From the UHGV virus genome UHGV-0118085: DNA of 17,017 nt; one strand, written 5' to 3'. This document shows positions 45 to 17,007 of this stretch, one piece after another. Made by a program: the position numbers and the translations under genes. The stretch is from a virus. The notes under the pieces were generated by a model. The model searched no databases. It had not been told where the DNA came from and was given only the letters and a program-made list of their open reading frames with translations. Numbering within the stretch: the stretch's first letter is position 1; every line of letters starts with the position of its first letter.

Positions 45-89
45 GATAAAAAAAAACCCCACATCATGTGGGGGAAGACAGGGATGGTG
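45..89. repeat. Attachment-site direct repeat, ogr-proximal copy
   Basis: gataaaaaaaaaccccacatcatgtgggggaagacagggatggtg matches 16963..17007 at 44 of 45 positions; the single difference is a at 56 versus c at 16974. The flanks diverge immediately outside the repeat. Confidence 0.8.
48..73 (-). terminator. Intrinsic-terminator-like hairpin inside the att core
   Basis: A 7-bp stem ccccaca/tgtgggg (57..63 and 67..73) with a 3-nt loop follows a run of nine A (48..56). On the minus strand this reads as a GC-rich hairpin followed by a U tract. The same structure is present in the right copy. Confidence 0.5.
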
Positions 90-191: not shown

Positions 192-440
192 TTATATCGC
201 TAAATTTAGTTGATCGCGTCCATAGTGCGAGGCGGGAAAGACGCCTGCAGGAACAAAGTCAGGCGCTAATTTATCGCGCCGCTCACGCTTGGTGACAATT
301 TTTTCAACGCTATTAAGCGTCGTGAATGACAAGCCGCATTCCATGTTCTGGCACTGATGATACTGACGAATCGTGACTTCACTGAGAGGCTTACTGGTGC
401 GGGTGCGGGCCGTAGCGCCACAATGTGGACATTTGAACAT
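192..440 (-). CDS. ogr: Ogr/Delta-type zinc-finger late-gene transcription activator
   Basis: 82-aa ORF with the Cys4 spacing C-x2-C-x22-C-x4-C (CPHC ... CQNMEC) and the YHQCQN motif typical of P2 Ogr. It sits directly downstream of D, as in P2. Confidence 0.85.
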   Translation of the reverse strand: MFKCPHCGATARTRTSKPLSEVTIRQYHQCQNMECGLSFTTLNSVEKIVTKRERRDKLAPDFVPAGVFPASHYGRDQLNLAI

Positions 441-478: not shown

Positions 479-1612
479 CTATTCAGTTTCTGCAATCCAG
501 TCAGATATTTTTGCTTCAAAGTTAAGCTGTGTAGTAAATCCATTGCTATCAACGTCATGCTGTACCTTGCTGATTATCCAGTCCTGGGCGTCAATATCTG
601 CCTTAAAACCGGTCACGGTCGAATGCATTTCCGGGTACAACTCCGCACGCCCGCGCGCCAAGGTGATCGAAAACTCCGCCGCGCCGCGCTGTAACTGCTG
701 CCACTTTGCCGCCGCTGCGCGCCTAGCGGCTTCTTCGTTCTGGAAGGTTTTACGCATAATAAAAACGTTACCTTCAGCGCCTTCAATGTAGTCACCTTCC
801 CTGCTGCTGCTCTTATCCTTTTTTTTCGTTGTGGCACGGCGACGAACGCTAACCTTTTTCTTTTTCCCGTAGTTTAGATCAAGCCAGTACGCGCGGACGC
901 CGGTATAAGCGTCACGATCAGCAACCCGGAAGCGGTGCCGGTCTCCACTGCTGCGCGTGATGGCAATCGACGGAATAGCCTTCCCTGATGCAGTGAAACC
1001 ACCACCCGGCACGATAAACAGCAGACTTCCATTTTTTACCGTGGCGATGGCCCCTAACATTTCCGCCATTCTGGTCAGAAATGACATATCGCTTTCCTGA
1101 GTCTGATCGGCGTGATCAATTTCCACATCCATCAACAGATCGCTGATTTGCGGCGTCAGGTCATACCGTTTTGCGATAGCAGACACAATCCGCTCCACAG
1201 TCACATCATGCCAGGAGACTTCACGCTTTACGTTAAACTCTTCTCTGAAATCTGCACTTCTGGCAGTCACGGTGATACGGTCGGGCGGCCCGTCGTGCGC
1301 CACTTCATCAACCGTGTAGATGCCCTTATAAACCAGCGCTTCACCCATCCACCCCAGCCAGAAAGACAACTCAGCGCCACGCGGCGGAAGAGCAACGCTT
1401 CCATCAGTGTCATCCAGCTCTAATGTCAGCTGATCGGCGTCAAAACCCCGGTTGTCCGTCAGGCTGATGGATATCACGCGATCTGATAATTCTGTTAACA
1501 CCTTCCCGCCTTGCCGGACGCTGAATGCTGGTATTTTTAACGCCTCCGTCAGGATGTCATCGACACCGCCAGCCGCGCCCGAAATCATACTGCTGATCAC
1601 TGAAACACTCAT
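479..1612 (-). CDS. D: Phage tail protein D (gpD / late control D family)
   Basis: Long ORF resembling the P2 gpD family and immediately upstream of ogr. The track ORF runs to 1726, but the ATG at 1612..1610 is preceded by GGAGG and gives a P2-D-like length of about 377 aa, so I prefer that start. Confidence 0.8.
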   Translation of the reverse strand: MSVSVISSMISGAAGGVDDILTEALKIPAFSVRQGGKVLTELSDRVISISLTDNRGFDADQLTLELDDTDGSVALPPRGAELSFWLGWMGEALVYKGIYTVDEVAHDGPPDRITVTARSADFREEFNVKREVSWHDVTVERIVSAIAKRYDLTPQISDLLMDVEIDHADQTQESDMSFLTRMAEMLGAIATVKNGSLLFIVPGGGFTASGKAIPSIAITRSSGDRHRFRVADRDAYTGVRAYWLDLNYGKKKKVSVRRRATTKKKDKSSSREGDYIEGAEGNVFIMRKTFQNEEAARRAAAAKWQQLQRGAAEFSITLARGRAELYPEMHSTVTGFKADIDAQDWIISKVQHDVDSNGFTTQLNFEAKISDWIAETE

Positions 1613-1672
1613 ATACCCTCCCGTTTTGCTGAATAATTCCACGCGGGCGCGCGTGGGAGAATTCGTTTTAGT

Positions 1673-1690
1673 TGTCAGAGAGATAGCACA
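1673..1690 (+). promoter_or_regulatory. TGT-N12-ACA dyad, the Ogr-dependent P2 late-promoter activator-site pattern, upstream of FI
   Basis: TGT at 1673..1675, a 12-nt spacer cagagagatagc, then ACA at 1688..1690. The dyad centre is about 70 to 85 bp upstream of the FI start, the right region for an activator site near -55. Confidence 0.5.
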
Positions 1691-1753
1691 ACCAGAAAGG
1701 CGTGAAGCCGTTACGTCAATCAGCAATCATGGTGGCGAACTCAACAAAACGTA

Positions 1754-2956
1754 ATGGTGACAAACATGTCTGAGACACGTTTTCACGGTGCTCGCACCAA
1801 AGAAGAAACCGACATCACGAGGGTAATTAACGACATTGACTCCAGCGTCATTGGCGTGATTGTCATCGCTGATGACGCAGACGAAGACGCTTTCCCACTT
1901 AACATCCCAACGCTTATCACGCGGCCTCAGTCGATGCTCGGCAAGGCAGGGAAAACAGGGACGTTGTACAAAACACTGAAAGCTATTTCAGACCAGGCAA
2001 GCGCGAAAATCATTGTTGTTCGTGTTGCCACGGCTAAACCGCCGGAGGAAGGGAAAACGGCGGAAACACAGTCGCAGTTGATTATTGGTGGCTCTGATGC
2101 TGACGGTAACTACACCGGCATGTATGCGCTACTGACCGCCGAACAAAAAACGGGATATCGCCCGCGCGTCCTGGCGGTGCCGGAATACGATACCGAAGAA
2201 GTAACATCACAGCTTTGCGTGATCGCCAAACAGCTTCGCGCCTTTGTTTATGCTGGCTGTAACGGCTGCAACACACTGGCAGAGGCCCGGCAATATCGTG
2301 AAACCTTCGCATCACGTGAACTCATGCTGATCTGGCCTAACTACATTGCCTATAACCAGGTGTCCGGGGCAAATGAAGAGTTTCCCGCCCCAGCCTATGC
2401 GGTAGGGCTGCGCGCGTTTATTGACAACCAATACGGCTGGCATCGTTCTCTGTCTAACATCGCCGTCAGTAACGTGCTTGGCATGTCGAAGGACGTTTTC
2501 TGGGCGCTCCAGGCTGAAGACAGCGACGCCCAGACGCTGAACAACGATGAAATCACCACCATCATCAAGCGTAACGGCTTCCGCTTCTGGGGCAACCGCA
2601 CCACTGACACCAATGAATTTACTTTTGAGGTGTACACCCGTACGGCGCAAATCCTGGCGGACACCATCGCAGAGGCACAGTTTGAAACCGTTGACGGGCC
2701 ACTTACCCCAACCAACGTGAAAGACGTGGTGAGTGCAATTAACAAGAAACTCAGCGCACTTGTGACCGCTGGCAAGCTGCTTGGCGCGGAGGCGTGGTTT
2801 GACATTGTGGACAACCCGACCGCAAACCTGATTCAGGGAAAAGTGGCGATCCGTTACAAGTATACGCCAGTACCGCCGATGGAAGATTTAACGCTGATCC
2901 AGACGTTCACCGATGAATATTTTGAAGGCGCGTTTTCGTCTCTGGGGAGTAACTAA
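1754..2956 (+). CDS. FI: Contractile tail sheath protein (P2 FI family)
   Basis: 400-aa ORF with tail-sheath hallmarks (DADEDAFPLN near the N-terminus, GFRFWGNRT, LRAF, C-terminal YTPVPP). Its stop is immediately followed by the start of the tube-like ORF, as for FI-FII in P2. The true start may be the ATG at 1766 (MSETRF...). Confidence 0.85.
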   Translation: MVTNMSETRFHGARTKEETDITRVINDIDSSVIGVIVIADDADEDAFPLNIPTLITRPQSMLGKAGKTGTLYKTLKAISDQASAKIIVVRVATAKPPEEGKTAETQSQLIIGGSDADGNYTGMYALLTAEQKTGYRPRVLAVPEYDTEEVTSQLCVIAKQLRAFVYAGCNGCNTLAEARQYRETFASRELMLIWPNYIAYNQVSGANEEFPAPAYAVGLRAFIDNQYGWHRSLSNIAVSNVLGMSKDVFWALQAEDSDAQTLNNDEITTIIKRNGFRFWGNRTTDTNEFTFEVYTRTAQILADTIAEAQFETVDGPLTPTNVKDVVSAINKKLSALVTAGKLLGAEAWFDIVDNPTANLIQGKVAIRYKYTPVPPMEDLTLIQTFTDEYFEGAFSSLGSN

Positions 2957-4039
2957 ATGGCGATTCCAGCAAAATTGCGGCTGTTCACCTGCTTCGTGAA
3001 CAGCGTAAACAATATCGGCAAAGTGACATCTGTGACGCTGCCAAAACTGACCCGGAAAACGGAAGACTACCAGGGCGGCGGCATGATTGGTTCCGTTGCC
3101 GTCGATCTCGGACTGGATATCTGGCGATTCTGGGAACCGATCAAAGCCTTCTTTGCGGGCTTCTTTGCCGGTGTGATGCAGGCTCTTACACCGTTCCGGG
3201 ATGCCTTTGCCGGGCTGGCCCCCGTCTTTGATGTGATCTCGAATGCCGTTTCTGAGTTATGGCAGTGGTTCAGCAACCTGCTTTCACCAATGACGACCAG
3301 CAAAGAGATGCTTGATAAATGCGCAAGCGCTGGGGAGACATTCGGCAAAGTGTTTGGCCTGGCAATTCAGGGGTTAATGTTGCCTCTGACCGGGCTAGCC
3401 AAAATGGTTGGATGGATACTTGAAAAGCTGGGACTGATTCCATCCGGGATTGAAACAGCAAAAGCAAAAGCTGAGAAGGTACAGAAGGAACTAACACCGG
3501 CAGGATTGACTATGCTGCAGGACAAAGTTGGCGCGCTCACTGGTGATGTAAAAGCAGTAACCGCACCACCTATCGCACCGCCATCACCGGTGATTGCCGC
3601 AGATACAGGAACACAACGACGCTTACAGAAAATTGCCGACAACACCGGCGGGATGCTGGATGAAACCAAAAAACGGATCGGCCCTGGCGATATAGTGTTT
3701 AAAAACCTGCCCCGCGCATTAGCCGTCCACGGCACATGGCAGGAAGCACAATCAACCCAAGGCGCTAACCTGACCCAACTGAGCGGGCGACCGGTTATCG
3801 CAGCGGCATCAGCCCCGATTAAACCAGCGGCTGAAATACAGGCTATTGGCGGGCAATCCAGGAAACAAATCAGCAGATCGGCGCAAAACACCACGCCTGA
3901 TGAAATGCATATTCACATTCATATGCACGGCAATTTCAGCAACGACGCCCGCGACATTGCGCGCATGACCGCCGACGCAGTACAGGCAGAATTTAATAAG
4001 CGCTTCCGCTCACGTAGCAGCTTCAGTGACAATGAATAG
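2957..4039 (+). CDS. Chimeric ORF: tail-tube (FII-like) N-terminus fused in frame to a tape-measure (gpT-like) C-terminal portion; probably a deletion remnant
   Basis: The first ~54 residues (MAIPAKLRLF...VTLPKLTRK...VDLGLD) resemble the tail-tube N-terminus. The remainder is an Ala/Gly-rich, partly hydrophobic sequence typical of a tape-measure C-terminus. 360 aa is far too long for a tube protein (about 170 aa) and far too short for a tape measure (about 800 aa). Confidence 0.6.
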   Translation: MAIPAKLRLFTCFVNSVNNIGKVTSVTLPKLTRKTEDYQGGGMIGSVAVDLGLDIWRFWEPIKAFFAGFFAGVMQALTPFRDAFAGLAPVFDVISNAVSELWQWFSNLLSPMTTSKEMLDKCASAGETFGKVFGLAIQGLMLPLTGLAKMVGWILEKLGLIPSGIETAKAKAEKVQKELTPAGLTMLQDKVGALTGDVKAVTAPPIAPPSPVIAADTGTQRRLQKIADNTGGMLDETKKRIGPGDIVFKNLPRALAVHGTWQEAQSTQGANLTQLSGRPVIAAASAPIKPAAEIQAIGGQSRKQISRSAQNTTPDEMHIHIHMHGNFSNDARDIARMTADAVQAEFNKRFRSRSSFSDNE

Positions 4040-4051
4040 GAGAGCAAAACA

Positions 4052-5749
4052 ATGATGATGGTTTACGGAATGTTCGTCTTTGAGTTAAAAACCGTTCCCC
4101 ACCAACAGTTGCAGCAATCAAAGACCTGGAGGCATGTGAAGAACGAACGCATAAACCGATCGGCAAAATGGCAATACATTGGCGCGGGTGACGATCAAAT
4201 CACCCTATGCCAACTCACCATGAAGCCGACAAAGACGGGCGGCGATCTGAAGGAAATTGACGCGCTCACGCGCCAGGTGAAGAAACTGGCAGAAGGACAA
4301 CCGGCGCAGCCATTCAAGAAAGCGCGCGCGAGCAAAAAGAAAAACCACTTCACCGAAGCGCAGATCGCCGCGCTGCGGGAAAAAATTCAGGACTCCTTGG
4401 CCTGGCATCAGCAAGGATGGTTTGAACAGCGCCAGCAGCGCAACCGCATGATCCTGAAAAGTCGCCAGATTGGCGCTACCTGGTACTTTGCCCGTGAAGC
4501 GCTTTTACAGGCGCTGCGGGATGACGTTAAGCACGGGTATCAGCGCAACCAGATTTTTCTGTCAGCGTCACGTCGCCAGGCGCACCAGTTCCGGGGCTTC
4601 ATCCAGAAGGTTGCAGAAGAAGTCGACGTAGAGCTAAAAGGCGGTGACAAAATTTTGTTATCTAACGGGGCCGAATTGCATTTTCTCGGCACGTCTGCTG
4701 CTACCGCGCAGAGCTACACCGGCAACCTGTTTTTCGACGAATTTTTCTGGGTAGGTAACTTTGCCAACCTCCGCAAGGTGGCTGGCGCAATGGCAACCCT
4801 GAAAGGACTGACGCGCACTTATTTTTCAACGCCATCGAGCGAAAGCCATGAAGCCTACCCCTTCTGGACGGGTAAGCGCTGGAATGAGAAGCGGGCAAAA
4901 TCCAGCCGAGTAGAGTTCGACACAAGCTGGAAGACGCTCAACAGCGGCCTGTTGTGCCCGGATAAAACCTGGCGGCAGATTGTCACCCTGAAGGACGTGA
5001 TCGACCACGGCTGGGAGTTCACCGACCTGGAAGAAATCCAGGACGAAAATACCCCGGACGAATACACCAACCTGTACATGTGTGAGTTCGTCAAAGAAGG
5101 TGAATCCGTTTTCTCACTTAATCAGCTACTGACGTGCGGCGCGGACGGCTACGACGACTGGCAGGACTGGAAACCCTACGCCCCCCGCCCGCTTGGCGAT
5201 CGTGAAGTCTGGATAGGCTACGACGCCAACGGCGGCAGTGGCAACGGTGACAGCGGCGCTGTTTCCGTGGTTACCCCTCCCCTGGTCAGTGGCGGCAAGT
5301 TCCGCACGATAGAGACGCGCCAGCTACGCGGGATGGAGTTTGAAGAACAGGCCAAAGTGATCGAAGACCTGACCATTAAATACAACGTCCGGCACATCGC
5401 AATTGACGGTACCGGCATTGGTGAAGCGGTCTGGCAACTGGTCAAGAAATTCTTCCCGGCGGCGGTCTGTTTCATCATGTCGCTGTCATCAAAGCGCACT
5501 CTGGTACTCAAAATGCAGCAGGTGATCCGCGCGGGCCGCTGGGAGTATGACCGTAGTGAACAGGCGTTAGTGTCAGCATTCAACGCCGTCAGGAAAATCA
5601 CCACCGCCGGTGGACAAATTACCTATGACACCGATCGCGCGCGCGGCGTCAGTCATGGCGACTTAGCCTGGGCAAATATGCTGGCAATCATCAACGAGCC
5701 ACTTGGACGCGAGAACGGCAGCGGCGGCGGTTCCGTAAGAGAGTTTTAA
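4052..5749 (+). CDS. Chimeric ORF: gpU-like tail-protein N-terminus (about 65 aa) fused in frame to a nearly complete large terminase (gpP-like, ATPase plus nuclease)
   Basis: The N-terminus MMMVYGMFVFELKTVPHQQLQ...WRH...ITL...TGG matches the gpU family pattern. The rest carries terminase large-subunit features (KSRQIGATWYFAREAL, QIFLSAS, GNLFFDEFFWV, YFSTPSS...YPFWTG, C-terminal IAIDGTGIG). An RBS (GGAG) precedes the ATG, and the stop overlaps the Q start (TAATG). Confidence 0.65.
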   Translation: MMMVYGMFVFELKTVPHQQLQQSKTWRHVKNERINRSAKWQYIGAGDDQITLCQLTMKPTKTGGDLKEIDALTRQVKKLAEGQPAQPFKKARASKKKNHFTEAQIAALREKIQDSLAWHQQGWFEQRQQRNRMILKSRQIGATWYFAREALLQALRDDVKHGYQRNQIFLSASRRQAHQFRGFIQKVAEEVDVELKGGDKILLSNGAELHFLGTSAATAQSYTGNLFFDEFFWVGNFANLRKVAGAMATLKGLTRTYFSTPSSESHEAYPFWTGKRWNEKRAKSSRVEFDTSWKTLNSGLLCPDKTWRQIVTLKDVIDHGWEFTDLEEIQDENTPDEYTNLYMCEFVKEGESVFSLNQLLTCGADGYDDWQDWKPYAPRPLGDREVWIGYDANGGSGNGDSGAVSVVTPPLVSGGKFRTIETRQLRGMEFEEQAKVIEDLTIKYNVRHIAIDGTGIGEAVWQLVKKFFPAAVCFIMSLSSKRTLVLKMQQVIRAGRWEYDRSEQALVSAFNAVRKITTAGGQITYDTDRARGVSHGDLAWANMLAIINEPLGRENGSGGGSVREF

Positions 5750-6810
5750 TGAACACAACAACACACGAAAGCGGCCTGACTATGCTTACTGACGGTACAC
5801 AGCAACATGATATTGGTGAAGCACTGAAGCGCGATCCAGCCCTTAGCGCTTTCACCTTTGATGGGCCATACCAGGTCGCTGACGCTTACGACCTGCTCGA
5901 CAATATGTATTGCGCCGATAACGGCAGATATTACGAAACACCGGTGGACTGGTACGGGCTTGCGCGCTCATTCGGCAAGGCGTCCTGGCACCAGTCAGCG
6001 CTGTACTTCAAGCGCAACGCGCTGGCGGGTTGCTTCATCCCACACCCGCTACTGTCTCGCCAGACGTTCTCCGCCCTGGCGCTTGACTGGTTTGTGTTTG
6101 GCAACTTCTACCTGGAAGAACGAAATAACCGACTAGGCGGGCTGCTACCGCTCCGCCATTCCCCGGCGAAATACACCCGGCGTGGCATTGACCTGGATAC
6201 ATACTGGTTTATCAGGCAGTGGAAAGACGAATCAGCTTTTAAAACCGGCTCTGTCTGCCATGTGTTGAACCCTGACATTCATCAGGAGATCTACGGGATG
6301 CCGGAGTACATGGGCGCGCTATTGTCAGCCAGCCTGTCACACTCGGCGGACATGTTCCGCAAGATGTATTACGAAAACGGATCTCATGCCGGATGCATTC
6401 TGTATATCGGCACATCACAGGTGGACGACGCTGGCGTAAAAGTCATACAGCAAACACTGGCGGGAGCCAGGAACAAAGGGGCATTTAAGAACGTAGTGAT
6501 CCACGCGCCAGGCGGCGGTAAAGACGGGGTACAACTGATGCCCTTCAGCCAGATATCAGCAAAGGATGAGTTTTTAAATATTAAATCAGCGACACGCGAT
6601 GACATTCTGGCGGCTCACCGCGTACCGCCGCAACTGATGGGGGCCATGCCGGACGGCAACGGCTCATTCGGTGATGTGGAGAAGGCCGCGCGCGTGTTTG
6701 CCATCAACGAACTAATGCCAGCAATGGAAGCGCTGAAGCACGTCAACGACTGGCTGGGGGAAGAAGTGATCCGCTTTAAACCTTACGCCCTGCTGGAAAC
6801 CATGAAATAA
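5749..6810 (+). CDS. Q: Phage portal protein (P2 gpQ family)
   Basis: 353-aa ORF of P2 Q size, translationally coupled to the terminase ORF, and followed by a GC-rich cos-like spacer as in P2. Confidence 0.85.
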   Translation: MNTTTHESGLTMLTDGTQQHDIGEALKRDPALSAFTFDGPYQVADAYDLLDNMYCADNGRYYETPVDWYGLARSFGKASWHQSALYFKRNALAGCFIPHPLLSRQTFSALALDWFVFGNFYLEERNNRLGGLLPLRHSPAKYTRRGIDLDTYWFIRQWKDESAFKTGSVCHVLNPDIHQEIYGMPEYMGALLSASLSHSADMFRKMYYENGSHAGCILYIGTSQVDDAGVKVIQQTLAGARNKGAFKNVVIHAPGGGKDGVQLMPFSQISAKDEFLNIKSATRDDILAAHRVPPQLMGAMPDGNGSFGDVEKAARVFAINELMPAMEALKHVNDWLGEEVIRFKPYALLETMK

Positions 6811-6984
6811 CCAACCCGCCGCCATCCCGGCGGCGCTCTCCGCATCACATCAATACACGGCACGCCAGCGCCATTCTAAGCGCCCCATAATCTAAACACG
6901 CCATTACCCGCACACAACACACAGAACGCAGCAGCGCGCCAGAATTGCGCCAATTTCCCTATATTTGAGGTATACCCCTTCCCA

Positions 6985-7030
6985 CCCCGCCGCGCGGGCT
7001 TTCCCCCCGTCACCTGCGCGCGGCAAACAC
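6985..7030. other. Putative cos (cohesive-end / packaging) region
   Basis: A GC-rich palindromic stretch containing gctttcccc, which resembles the reverse complement of the P2 cos end as I recall it. It lies about 190 bp past the portal stop, where cos is expected in this orientation. The match is partial. Confidence 0.3.
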
Positions 7031-7152
7031 GCGTGTTTTCGTGCATTGGCAGAACCACATCCAGCAACCATAGACCCTGCCATTATCGTCTTAAAACTCG
7101 ACTGATTTAGTTGTGCATTTTTGTGCACTTTCTTGCATGTCATTACACGTAT

Positions 7153-9924
7153 TTAATCATCTAGCAACGGATCTTGTGCCTTACTGGAATTAACTTGCTC
7201 CAAATGCTTAATACAATCTTCACTTGAAATAAAATAGACCTTAGGTTTTTTCCTTAGCTCATATGTCAAAAATACTGTCACTTCCATTTTTACATACGTT
7301 TTCAGATTAGTTTCATTTATATCTAATCCTCTTGAAGTCAACAAACTATCAGATGGAGAAGTGAAAGATGCTTTTAATATATCGTCTCCCTCAAGAGAAA
7401 AACAACAAACATCATCAAGATGAATATAATAAAAACCATCCTTATTAAATTTTACATCATTTTGTACTCTATATCTCATTCCTCTGTAGAATCTGACGTT
7501 ATGATCAAAATCATTCTCTATTGCGCTTATAGTTATAAACTTCAAACCTTCAGGGAGTTGGTTAAGATTCTTAATAATAACAACATCCATATCATGAAGA
7601 TCACTAATCAAATGAGAAGTGATGAGTTTGAAAACATTTGCCGCATATAAAGATGGAGATTGGGAATATATTTCTCCATTAATGGGCTTAATAATCTGTC
7701 GCTTCGTAATTAGATATTCAAAAACAAACTTGTCACTAATATTTTCACAACTACACTCTAAAGTAGCAAACTCACGAAATGTTTTTATGAAATCATTTTT
7801 TAATCCATCTTCATATAGCTTCATGAGTTCTTCATCATAAGGAGTATTGATCACATCATTGACTTGAATATCAAGAATCTTAGAGTTTATTTCTTCAAAT
7901 CCAGAAAGTAGATTATGCTTACGCTCATCAAAACTATTAAGCTCATCATTATGAGCTTCTAATTCGAGTAAATCCATAACTTCTCTAAAAAAATCTGATT
8001 GATATATAGACATGACATCATCTATAAAATGAGATGAAAGATTATTTACCTTTACAAGGTTCTCTAAATCATCAATATATATTAGACTTAAACCATTATT
8101 GTACGAACGACCTTTGAATAAAATCAATGCTAAAGCAAAAGCCATATAATGTTGTGATCTTATAGAAATAGCACCTGAGCCAGTTGCATCCCTTATTTCA
8201 AACTCATCTATATCATCTAAAAAAACAGATTTTAACGAAAAAAGAATATCATAAACTTCTGATATGAAGTAAATCTCCGTTAAGTAATGAGGATTCAACC
8301 ATTGGCTCAGCAAGTTTGCCAGATCTAATATTTCCTCATTCTTATTTTTTAGTTCACATAATCGAATGCCATCATTTTTTCCTAGTAGGTGCTCCAACCG
8401 CATTCCAATACAAGATATCACTATTTTATTCGCATCAATCAGCAAGGATTGTCTAGTATTCAATTCAGATGATGAAATGCCAATATAAATGTTATTATTC
8501 CCAGTAAGAAATGTAGTGTTTATTTTAAAAGCATCATAATGTCTATTGACAAGGTTTTTAATACTCGACTTAAGATAAATCTCAAGAAACTTATCACTTT
8601 CAGAATACATAACTCTTTCTTCTGTGAAACTCCTAGACTCAATCAAAAAACCATAATATGAAGATGGATCATAAATTATTCTCGGAAGAGAAAGCATAGA
8701 ACTAAAGACGATTAGAGCTTTTTCAATATCGGTATATAGAAGAAGCCATAGCAACTTATTATAAAACGCGAATAGTATTGTTTGTGGTGTATTTTTTGAG
8801 GATGGGGATTCATATATGAATCGTTCCAAACTTAAAAACACTCCTGCACTTTGAGATTTTGAAATTATTAAATATATTACTTCCACACAAAAATCAAGTT
8901 GACTACTTAAACTCCCCTGCAAGGTGTTTAATGTATTCCTTACAACCATCAACTCTATTTCATCATAAAAATAGAAATTTTCGCTTTCATTAAGATAATT
9001 GAATGATTTACTAATGAGCGTTTTAATTTTATTAAGAGACTCATGATTTTGATTCAAATTAATGCCTTCATCAGAAAAAATAATGGCATCTCTATCAATC
9101 ATAGGCTTGTGAAATGTAGGTGAGATATATAATACAACTTTTGAAGTGCCGAAAATTTTTGTTAGTTCAGCATTCAATTTATTTAGATTATTCTTATTAA
9201 GGCCAACTATTACTTTCTTATCCGTAGAATATGTATTTTTAATTTTTACTCCATTTAGAGGCATGAACTCCATTTCATATTTAATAACTGAATTCTGTTG
9301 GTTTTTTATAAAATTACGAAATTCAGCAAGTAGATGCTTGCTATTATTATTACTATCTAAAACAAATGAACTAACTTCCGTTACTTTATTCAATAAAATT
9401 GCATCAATCAACTCTTTTTTCTCTGTTATATAATATAAACTCCTGAACATGGATATGTATCGGAATATAAAAAAAACAGAGCATGATACTGACAAGGCAT
9501 ATTGAATAACCCCCCCACCGATTACCAAGAAAAAGATTCCCACAAATAATCCGCAAATAGCATTAAGGCTGAATGAATAAAATTTATATTCTCTCAATAC
9601 CAATTGCCTTGTTACATTAACAAAATACTTATTTGATGCCTCTGTAACCTGTTGAACAAACATTCCCATAAATGCAATTGATAATGCAGCGATTGTTCCG
9701 TGGATTGATAATATAGTTCCCCAAGAGCTAGGAATCCAATTTAACTCTGCTTTATTAACGTATAACGGAGAAATAAAGAGCCAGCGATAGTCAGAATCTC
9801 CTCCTGCCCCTACAAAAAATAAAACCGAACCTAAAAGCAAAATTAAACCCATCTTAATAAAAGACTCAATTGCTTTTTTACCTGTGAATTCAGCCACCTG
9901 CTTTGATATTTTACCACTATCCAT
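7153..9924 (-). CDS. Large AT-rich cargo protein of unknown function with about four N-terminal transmembrane helices; candidate anti-phage defence or exclusion protein
   Basis: Uninterrupted 923-codon ORF. Sampled 60-nt lines inside it give 19/60 and 14/60 G+C, against 37/60 in a sampled line of gene A. Hydrophobic segments fall at residues about 25-41, 66-90 and 118-165 (nt about 9430..9852). No Walker A, HUH, DPPY or other motif recognised in the soluble part. It occupies the P2 tin/old position between A and cos/Q. Confidence 0.8.
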   Translation of the reverse strand: MDSGKISKQVAEFTGKKAIESFIKMGLILLLGSVLFFVGAGGDSDYRWLFISPLYVNKAELNWIPSSWGTILSIHGTIAALSIAFMGMFVQQVTEASNKYFVNVTRQLVLREYKFYSFSLNAICGLFVGIFFLVIGGGVIQYALSVSCSVFFIFRYISMFRSLYYITEKKELIDAILLNKVTEVSSFVLDSNNNSKHLLAEFRNFIKNQQNSVIKYEMEFMPLNGVKIKNTYSTDKKVIVGLNKNNLNKLNAELTKIFGTSKVVLYISPTFHKPMIDRDAIIFSDEGINLNQNHESLNKIKTLISKSFNYLNESENFYFYDEIELMVVRNTLNTLQGSLSSQLDFCVEVIYLIISKSQSAGVFLSLERFIYESPSSKNTPQTILFAFYNKLLWLLLYTDIEKALIVFSSMLSLPRIIYDPSSYYGFLIESRSFTEERVMYSESDKFLEIYLKSSIKNLVNRHYDAFKINTTFLTGNNNIYIGISSSELNTRQSLLIDANKIVISCIGMRLEHLLGKNDGIRLCELKNKNEEILDLANLLSQWLNPHYLTEIYFISEVYDILFSLKSVFLDDIDEFEIRDATGSGAISIRSQHYMAFALALILFKGRSYNNGLSLIYIDDLENLVKVNNLSSHFIDDVMSIYQSDFFREVMDLLELEAHNDELNSFDERKHNLLSGFEEINSKILDIQVNDVINTPYDEELMKLYEDGLKNDFIKTFREFATLECSCENISDKFVFEYLITKRQIIKPINGEIYSQSPSLYAANVFKLITSHLISDLHDMDVVIIKNLNQLPEGLKFITISAIENDFDHNVRFYRGMRYRVQNDVKFNKDGFYYIHLDDVCCFSLEGDDILKASFTSPSDSLLTSRGLDINETNLKTYVKMEVTVFLTYELRKKPKVYFISSEDCIKHLEQVNSSKAQDPLLDD

Positions 9925-16962: not shown

Positions 16963-17007
16963 GATAAAAAAAACCCCCACATCATGTGGGGGAAGACAGG
17001 GATGGTG
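16963..17007. repeat. Attachment-site direct repeat, int-proximal copy
   Basis: Matches 45..89 at 44 of 45 positions and includes the same A-run plus ccccaca/tgtgggg hairpin. Confidence 0.8.

Follow-up and report, generated by a model that had tools for sequence, protein, structure and literature searches.

An open reading frame of the window, the 17,017-nucleotide stretch of DNA analyzed here, encodes a 565-residue protein in which residues 1-52 of the tail protein gpU are joined in frame to residues 61-574 of a large terminase. The chimera very probably arose by accident as a prophage decayed, and is the scar of a single recent deletion of ~12 kb. Judged by its Novemvirus-like gene order, early region and att repeats, all of which are present, the element that carries it is a defective Novemvirus-like, P2-family prophage of E. 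coli. The parts of the reading frame are as follows.

4052..5749 (+), chimeric ORF gpU(1-52)::terminase(61-574), 565 aa
4052..4208 (+), gpU-derived 5' portion (codons 1-52) that retains gpU's own ribosome-binding site (RBS) and triple ATG (DNA and protein comparison)
4206..4208 (+), deletion junction TAT (gpU parent ACC CTA TCC; terminase parent CGG TTA TGC)
4209..5749 (+), terminase-derived 3' part with linker, Terminase_6N and Terminase_6C, lacking the Terminase_5 helix-turn-helix (HTH) (Pfam, DNA comparison)

Composition of the chimeric ORF

Pfam identifies three domains in the protein: Phage_P2_GpU (PF06995) at the N terminus (E 2.9e-13), the ATPase domain Terminase_6N (PF03237) at residues 133-359 (E 2.5e-54) and the RNaseH-like nuclease domain Terminase_6C (PF17289) at residues 388-548 (E 7.4e-33). 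The PHROG assignments are concordant, with large-subunit terminase families and, on residues 1-75, the tail family phrog_76. The first-pass annotation, made from the sequence alone, had described a gpU-like N terminus fused in frame to a P-type large terminase with its ATPase and nuclease regions retained; domain searches and parent alignments agree that the fusion is real, and both catalytic domains are intact. Its measurements were less exact. The parent alignment gives a gpU part of 52 residues where ~65 had been estimated, and a terminase shortened by 60 residues (66 when counted along P2 gpP) instead of 80-90.

Residues 1-52 agree with the gpU sequence of the intact prophage in E. coli ES1 at 51 of 52 positions, and residues 52-565 match residues 61-574 of the 574-residue ES1 terminase with 97% identity and those of the native terminase P0002 with 100% identity. 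The corresponding values against P2 itself are 42% for gpU residues 1-52 and 47% for gpP, which aligns from its residue 67; alignment to P2 U and P, proposed earlier as a check, agrees with the fusion. The junction lies outside the span of 4230-4300 in which it had been placed. The closest sequences are the 574-residue terminases of intact E. coli prophages (P0002-P0005). Enterobacter phage phiT5282H is the closest classified phage, its terminase being 79.7% identical to P0002.

The GpU domain is incomplete. In the ES1 gpU it is complete, whereas in the chimera only profile positions 1-68 of ~120 match and true homology stops at residue 52; the Pfam match is stretched to residue 75 because the terminase segment KPTKTGGDL resembles the gpU segment YPSVTGGKV by chance. 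Compared with gpU proteins of 159-162 residues, the chimera keeps about one third, with the same first 52 residues, start codons and RBS, and everything from gpU residue 53 onward is deleted. A sequence search against PDB chains gave no match to the chimera, nor did the PADLOC models. NCBI labels it simply 'terminase family protein'.

The junction and its parents

The junction is a 3-bp microhomology, TAT, at 4206-4208, where the two parental homologies overlap by three bases with no filler. It takes in codon 52 (CTA, Leu) as well as the opening base of codon 53, and one leucine is common to both parents. Parents closer than ES1 were retrieved by exact-protein look-up. Upstream, window 3118-4208 is 100% identical at the DNA level to the intact T-U region of contig L019, which carries an intact FI-FII-E-E'-T-U block; downstream, contigs L011/L012, in which the divergent O and P-Q genes are intact, match window 4206-6810 at 100% identity with their P-Q region. 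Likewise, in a megablast search of complete E. coli genomes, the terminase match of the intact ES1 prophage starts only at window 4206. The parents carry a DNA invertase gene directly downstream of U. We considered the invertase as a cause of the deletion and set it aside, as inspection by eye showed only the 3-bp repeat at the junction and no shared invertase-like site.

A native architecture of a functional terminase is another reading of this N terminus, and the database label is compatible with it. Among the best 120 of 5,817 terminase homologues, however, PF06995 occurs only in the chimera's own cluster (P0001). All other 119 clusters carry Terminase_5 (PF06056), and all of these except P0071, a shorter protein of 549 residues, also carry the HTH domain PF13384. 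Moreover, the 52 residues correspond exactly to the beginning of gpU in intact relatives, complete with the upstream T stop codon and the gpU RBS, and all head genes other than the portal gene Q are missing from the element. An assembly error at the junction is equally hard to maintain, since independent assemblies from three archives (NCBI isolate, ENA metagenome and Logan) agree base for base at the fusion. We regard both a native architecture and an artefact as effectively refuted.

Gene order in intact relatives

The first-pass annotation reasoned from the P2 map, on which U (22312-22791, +) and P (1221-2993, -) do lie on opposite strands ~19 kb apart, and concluded that the fusion implied an inversion as well as a large deletion. 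The P2 map is inapplicable to the present element, which differs from P2 (no more than 47% identity in the terminase). In the intact prophage of E. coli ES1, the Klebsiella record CP052639 and phage phiT5282H, U and P are co-oriented and ~12 kb apart, so a single deletion suffices and no inversion is needed. The large deletion itself stands: the head, lysis, baseplate and fibre genes that it was said to span are absent from the element.

From the fieF end, intact prophages carry ogr and D leftward, then FI, FII, E, E', T and U rightward, followed by an acyltransferase or invertase gene. The fibre, baseplate and lysis genes and L, M, N and O come next, all leftward, and then P and Q rightward and the hotspot. 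The right part runs from A to cox leftward and ends with C and int rightward, next to cpxP. In ES1, the block from FI through FII, E, E' and T to U shares the strand of P-Q, with D and ogr alone lying opposite to it. CP052639 shows this order for the FI-U and P-Q blocks, with the D region rearranged, and in phiT5282H (Peduoviridae, genus Novemvirus) the FI-U block is likewise upstream of P-Q and shares its strand. In the closest intact relatives the FI-FII-E-T-U block sits ~12 kb upstream of P-Q, and in ES1 coordinates the gpU-terminase deletion measures 11,990 bp. The divergence of D (-) and FI (+) in the window is therefore the native arrangement. Going by these genomes, Novemvirus-like phages carry the FI-U block inverted relative to P2. 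Erwinia phage ENT90, tried as a gene-order model, has the canonical P2 order and is uninformative for this lineage; a paper on P2 diversity (PMC13100340) contains nothing on gene-order variants or remnants.

The missing N-terminal domain of the terminase

In native P0002, residues 6-63 form a Terminase_5/HTH_23 domain, exactly the piece that the chimera lacks; Pfam finds no PF06056 in it. The same N-terminal motif pattern is present in P2 gpP. In an alignment of 24 homologues with 80-97% identity, 62% of the first 60 positions are invariant, compared with 71% in the ATPase and 48% in the nuclease domain. The Terminase_5 region is as conserved as the catalytic domains and is therefore strongly constrained in functional phages. 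In the terminase alignment, MAFFT forces the chimera's gpU segment onto the HTH columns. A literature search found no experimental description of the function of Terminase_5. The AlphaFold2 model of the native terminase has a mean pLDDT of 45 from a shallow alignment, with three short helices at residues 2-41 predicted at moderate confidence.

Like P2-family gpP, the chimera has ATPase and nuclease domains and overlaps the portal gene, but it has 52 tail-protein residues in place of the Terminase_5 HTH and has lost its own promoter. The small terminase, its partner, and the capsid and scaffold genes are also missing from the element. The strongly conserved HTH and the absent small terminase gene both favor the earlier view that a terminase without its N terminus is unlikely to work normally, and judged by its sequence the chimera most probably does not function as a terminase.

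A second deletion and the state of the remnant

The window spans the whole element, which measures ~16.96 kb between fieF and cpxP, compared with 32.0-32.4 kb in intact relatives. Its features outside the chimera and the early region are listed here.

46..89, left att repeat, 44 bp (33 bp exact), partner of 16964-17007
192..440 (-), ogr-type late transcription activator, 82 aa (PF04606)
479..1612 (-), gpD (baseplate hub/late control D), oriented against FI as it is in intact relatives
1672..1691 (+), candidate site for an Ogr-type late activator, with a perfect TTGT-N12-ACAA dyad 63-82 bp ahead of FI
1754..2956 (+), intact sheath gene FI, first gene of the operon that also holds both chimeras and Q
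2957..4039 (+), FII-T chimera, 360 aa, codons 1-54 of tail tube FII followed by the last ~306 residues of tape measure T
5749..6810 (+), portal gene Q, intact (353 aa), start codon overlapping the terminase stop
6811..7053 (+), expected location of cos, downstream of Q
16964..17007, right att repeat, partner of 46-89

The element is collinear with intact prophages save for two deletions, and its virion-gene part is 99.8-100% identical to theirs. The second deletion, of 2,917 bp, fused FII to T in frame at a TA microhomology (3118-3119); FII residues 1-54 of the product are identical to ES1 FII at 52 of 54 positions. In every contig examined, the FII-T fusion occurs together with the gpU-terminase fusion, and no intermediate was seen.

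Most of FII, E, E', two thirds of T, most of U, the fibre and baseplate genes, S, R, the lysis genes, the head-completion genes, X, L, M, N, O, the O/P promoter region and the terminase N terminus have been lost. Consistent with this, PF05944, PF05125 and PF05929, the families of the small terminase gpM, capsid N and scaffold O, are absent from the element; in intact relatives these three genes all adjoin P. Lacking capsid, scaffold, small terminase, lysis, baseplate and fibre genes, the prophage is unable to make particles or lyse the cell. The seven hallmark proteins of the Peduoviridae are L, M, N, O, P, Q and T (PMC13100340). In the element Q is intact, P and T are truncated chimeras, and L, M, N and O are absent.

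What is kept comprises ogr, D, the sheath and portal genes, the region in which cos is expected, a 923-residue cargo gene, A, dam, the small early genes, cox, C and int. Downstream of Q, positions 6811..7021 show zero differences from the intact prophage L011, and six mismatches fall within 7022-7048. In P2, cos lies ~190 bp past Q; alignment with the P2 cos end gives two candidate G/C-rich stretches downstream of Q.

Copies, rarity and age

The exact 565-residue protein was found in 35 blocks of public assemblies, which include the two NCBI E. coli assemblies GCA_047770995.1 and GCA_018022265.1, ENA metagenomes and Logan runs. Over lengths of up to 15.7 kb, the remnant copies that were compared show 99.98-100% identity to the window, and at least 15 samples or runs hold identical copies. 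The chromosome around the element is that of ordinary E. coli and matches several complete genomes at 100% identity, and all copies with readable flanks are at the fieF-cpxP site. A megablast search found the junction in none of 5,426 complete E. coli genomes, and it was not found in GTDB species representatives or IMG/VR. Two further homologues are related in form: P0123 is the chimera with an additional 5-residue deletion, and P0122 is a 509-residue terminase that starts just past the junction position. On either side of the junction there are zero substitutions relative to intact relatives, so the event is evolutionarily very recent; these comparisons point to a fusion that arose once.

The same distribution could be read as mobility. 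An intact relative would excise, replicate and package the remnant as a helper-dependent mini-phage, for example as a ~34-kb dimer, with the chimera either irrelevant or acting as a residual terminase subunit with the helper's small terminase. The complete early region (int, cox, A/ori) and the cos-proximal region are retained, 2 x 16.96 kb is close to the genome size of the relatives, and one metagenome contig (L003/L016) has the remnant in tandem with another P2-family prophage. Tandem lysogeny is simply explained by reuse of the same att site, however, and the shared chromosomal position of the copies is what vertical inheritance in one clone would produce. The element also has no capsid-size or helper-manipulation gene, its P2-type immunity repressor leaves no evident induction route, and the chimera is not needed for any of this. 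Unlike P4-like satellites, it keeps sheath, D and portal genes of its own, and neither Pfam nor PHROG detects a satellite-type gene among its ten largest ORFs. We consider mobilization of this kind very improbable.

Expression potential and possible interference

The native gpU RBS (GGAG, 4039-4042) and the triple ATG are kept ahead of the chimera. At its other end, the stop codon TAA (5747-5749) overlaps the portal ATG (5749-5751) as TAATG, which is the native P-Q arrangement of intact relatives and agrees with the translational coupling noted at first pass. Because the native P promoter region is deleted, the site upstream of FI is the only obvious promoter left for the chimera. The TTGT-N12-ACAA dyad there lies in the divergent D/FI intergenic region and resembles the annotated activator site of P2 pO/pP; the motif is not more frequent in the window than expected by chance, so that it is a candidate by its position. 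A late promoter, plausibly Ogr-dependent, is probably present upstream of FI. Transcription of the chimera could then occur only within FI-FII'T-U'P-Q from this promoter, and the protein may well be made upon infection by a related phage.

This leads to the possibility that the chimera has been exapted as a dominant-negative terminase subunit against related P2-family phages. The Ogr-type activator of an invader, or the remnant's own Ogr, would turn on the FI promoter, and the product would lower the burst by taking up sites on the portal or procapsid, or by entering mixed terminase rings that fail to load at cos; the FII-T chimera might interfere as well. The intact ATPase, nuclease and C-terminal regions, the retained coupling to an intact portal gene, the presence of ogr and the dyad, and the fact that both deletions are in frame are all compatible with such a role. 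Prophage defences that block assembly or the terminase also exist. Tab, a tail assembly blocker (PMC10884400), and TerI, a terminase inhibitor (bioRxiv 10.1101/2025.02.27.640495), have both been demonstrated experimentally, the former as a dedicated prophage defence and the latter as a small dedicated defence protein, each with an anti-defence partner.

The resemblance is limited to the hypothetical outcome: a prophage hindering the assembly or packaging of a competitor. The known systems are dedicated proteins with self-immunity partners, whereas the chimera is a truncated structural enzyme without a partner gene. It also arose in a unique and very recent event, and with zero substitutions there is no evolutionary signal of selection; it does not recur among the listed homologues, and the PADLOC result above gives it no known defence relative. 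Nothing in the sequence speaks for this role over neutral decay, and we regard exaptation as quite improbable. The broader proposal, in which both chimeras are switched on by Ogr and poison the tail assembly and packaging of a related phage, so that defence arises by deletion alone, strikes us as equally improbable.

Origin of the chimera

Prophage decay remains by far the best explanation. A deletion in a prophage at fieF-cpxP of E. coli, probably microhomology-mediated (illegitimate), joined U codon 52 to P codon 61; both genes lie on the same strand, and the two frames happened to meet in phase. This step took out what remained of U, the genes for fibres, baseplate, lysis and head completion, and M, N and O, together with the divergent O/P late promoter and the terminase HTH domain. 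A separate, independent deletion of 2.9 kb fused FII to T. We infer replication slippage or end joining as the mechanism. The main points against an accidental scar are that catalytic domains, portal gene, RBS and coupling are untouched, that a plausible Ogr-dependent promoter remains, and that two deletions are in frame. The last is compatible with selection for read-through or for chimeric products, but it is a weak argument, as the chance of both junctions being in frame is about one in nine and thus unremarkable. With zero substitutions since the event, purifying selection and neutrality look the same on the chimera; it is most probably without a selected function.

Cryptic or defective prophages of E. 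coli are remnants of internal deletions that keep immunity, integration and cargo genes. The present remnant is similar in having lost its lysis and virion genes while retaining int, the repressor, replication genes and hotspot cargo, and in the 2-3 bp microhomology at its deletion junctions. It differs in being unusually fresh, with zero substitutions and with both junctions in frame, giving two full-length chimeric ORFs. The chimera is an ordinary product of prophage decay and a further example of a known process, but a clean and datable one: the junction can be compared with two parents of 100% identity, from which end points, microhomology and lost content are read exactly. Two cautions follow. 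The P2 gene map is not safe for all P2-family elements, because the FI-U block of Novemvirus-like phages is inverted, and a pipeline label such as 'terminase family protein' can make a dead prophage look competent for packaging. Were the chimera to interfere with related phages, it would mean that defence can arise by deletion alone; nothing points there. If selection contributes to the persistence of the remnant, its cargo and immunity are the likelier reason.

The cargo gene

The cos-proximal site is a defence hotspot of P2-like phages (PMC9122126). Here, an ORF at 7153..9924 (-), between Q/cos and A, encodes the 923-residue cargo protein, and intact relatives have different cargo at this position. 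The protein has no Pfam, PADLOC or NCBIfam match and only 14 homologue clusters, all of them enterobacterial 'hypothetical proteins'. Three or four hydrophobic segments lie at its N terminus, and its AlphaFold2 model, moderately confident at a pLDDT of 76, matches generic helical repeats only in the PDB.

Gene order and a second chimera

The FI-FII-E-T-U block of the Novemvirus-like lineage is inverted relative to P2 and stands separate from D and ogr, as seen in the window (479-4039) and at three other loci (L010, L025 and L026), and U therefore shares a strand with the terminase gene P and the portal gene Q. Rearrangements will be misinferred if the P2 map is applied to P2-family prophages in general. 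Within this block lies a second in-frame chimera, in which residues 1-54 of the tail tube protein FII are followed by ~306 residues from the C-terminal end of the tape measure protein T.

Chimeric tail gene of the window
2957-4039, + strand: FII-T chimeric ORF, in frame, 360 aa

A deletion of 2,917 bp, whose junction at 3118-3119 shows the microhomology 'TA', created the FII-T fusion, and in every public contig examined the gpU-terminase fusion accompanies it. Upstream, the divergent intergenic region between D and FI contains a perfect dyad that is similar to the annotated site of the P2 late activator Ogr.

Dyad in the D/FI intergenic region
1672-1691: TTGT-N12-ACAA

The dyad is a likely candidate for the late promoter that would now drive the sheath gene, both chimeras and the portal gene.

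The spot downstream of U

In the nearest intact parents (L015, L018 and L019), a DNA invertase gene lies directly downstream of U and adjoins tail-fibre genes; gene calling splits it into two ORFs in L015 and L018.

DNA invertase genes (Resolvase/HTH_7) of the intact parents
L015, 15723-16291
L018, 7417-7985
L019, 7417-7809

Escherichia coli ES1, in contrast, has an acyltransferase at this spot. This suggests a site of variable cargo or fibre switching at the deleted segment's left end.

The hotspot gene

In P2-like phages, the cos-proximal interval between the portal gene Q and the replication gene A is a defence hotspot; in the window it holds the following gene.

Hotspot gene of the window
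7153-9924, - strand: 923-aa protein

The protein has three to four N-terminal hydrophobic segments and no match in Pfam, PADLOC or NCBIfam. Its homologues form only 14 clusters, all from Enterobacteriaceae and all annotated 'hypothetical', and the only PDB matches to its AF2 model (pLDDT 76) are generic helical repeats. The protein is an uncharacterised candidate for a single-gene defence, and the remnant may in truth be retained because of it.

Variants in single samples

P0123, a 560-aa copy of the gpU-terminase chimera on an ENA contig, carries a further in-frame deletion of five residues (TPPLV, chimera residues 408-412) within the nuclease domain. In one Logan assembly (L031), the hotspot gene is frameshifted by a 1-bp deletion at the position corresponding to 9469 of the window. 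These single-sample changes show signs of either further decay or sequencing error. A related, non-identical terminase from Logan (P0122, 509 aa) has its called start, 'MKPTKTGG...', just past the junction position; this may be a further case of a terminase with a disrupted N-terminus, or no more than a gene-calling artefact.

Attachment repeats

The 16.96-kb element is bounded by att repeats, each containing a hairpin (CCCCACATCATGTGGGG), and is flanked by fieF and cpxP.

att repeats of the window (44 bp, 33 bp exact)
46-89
16964-17007

In one metagenome contig (L003/L016, 1-2544), the remnant and the int end of another P2-family prophage, which uses the same att core, form a tandem arrangement. 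Many short-read contigs end exactly at the att repeat.
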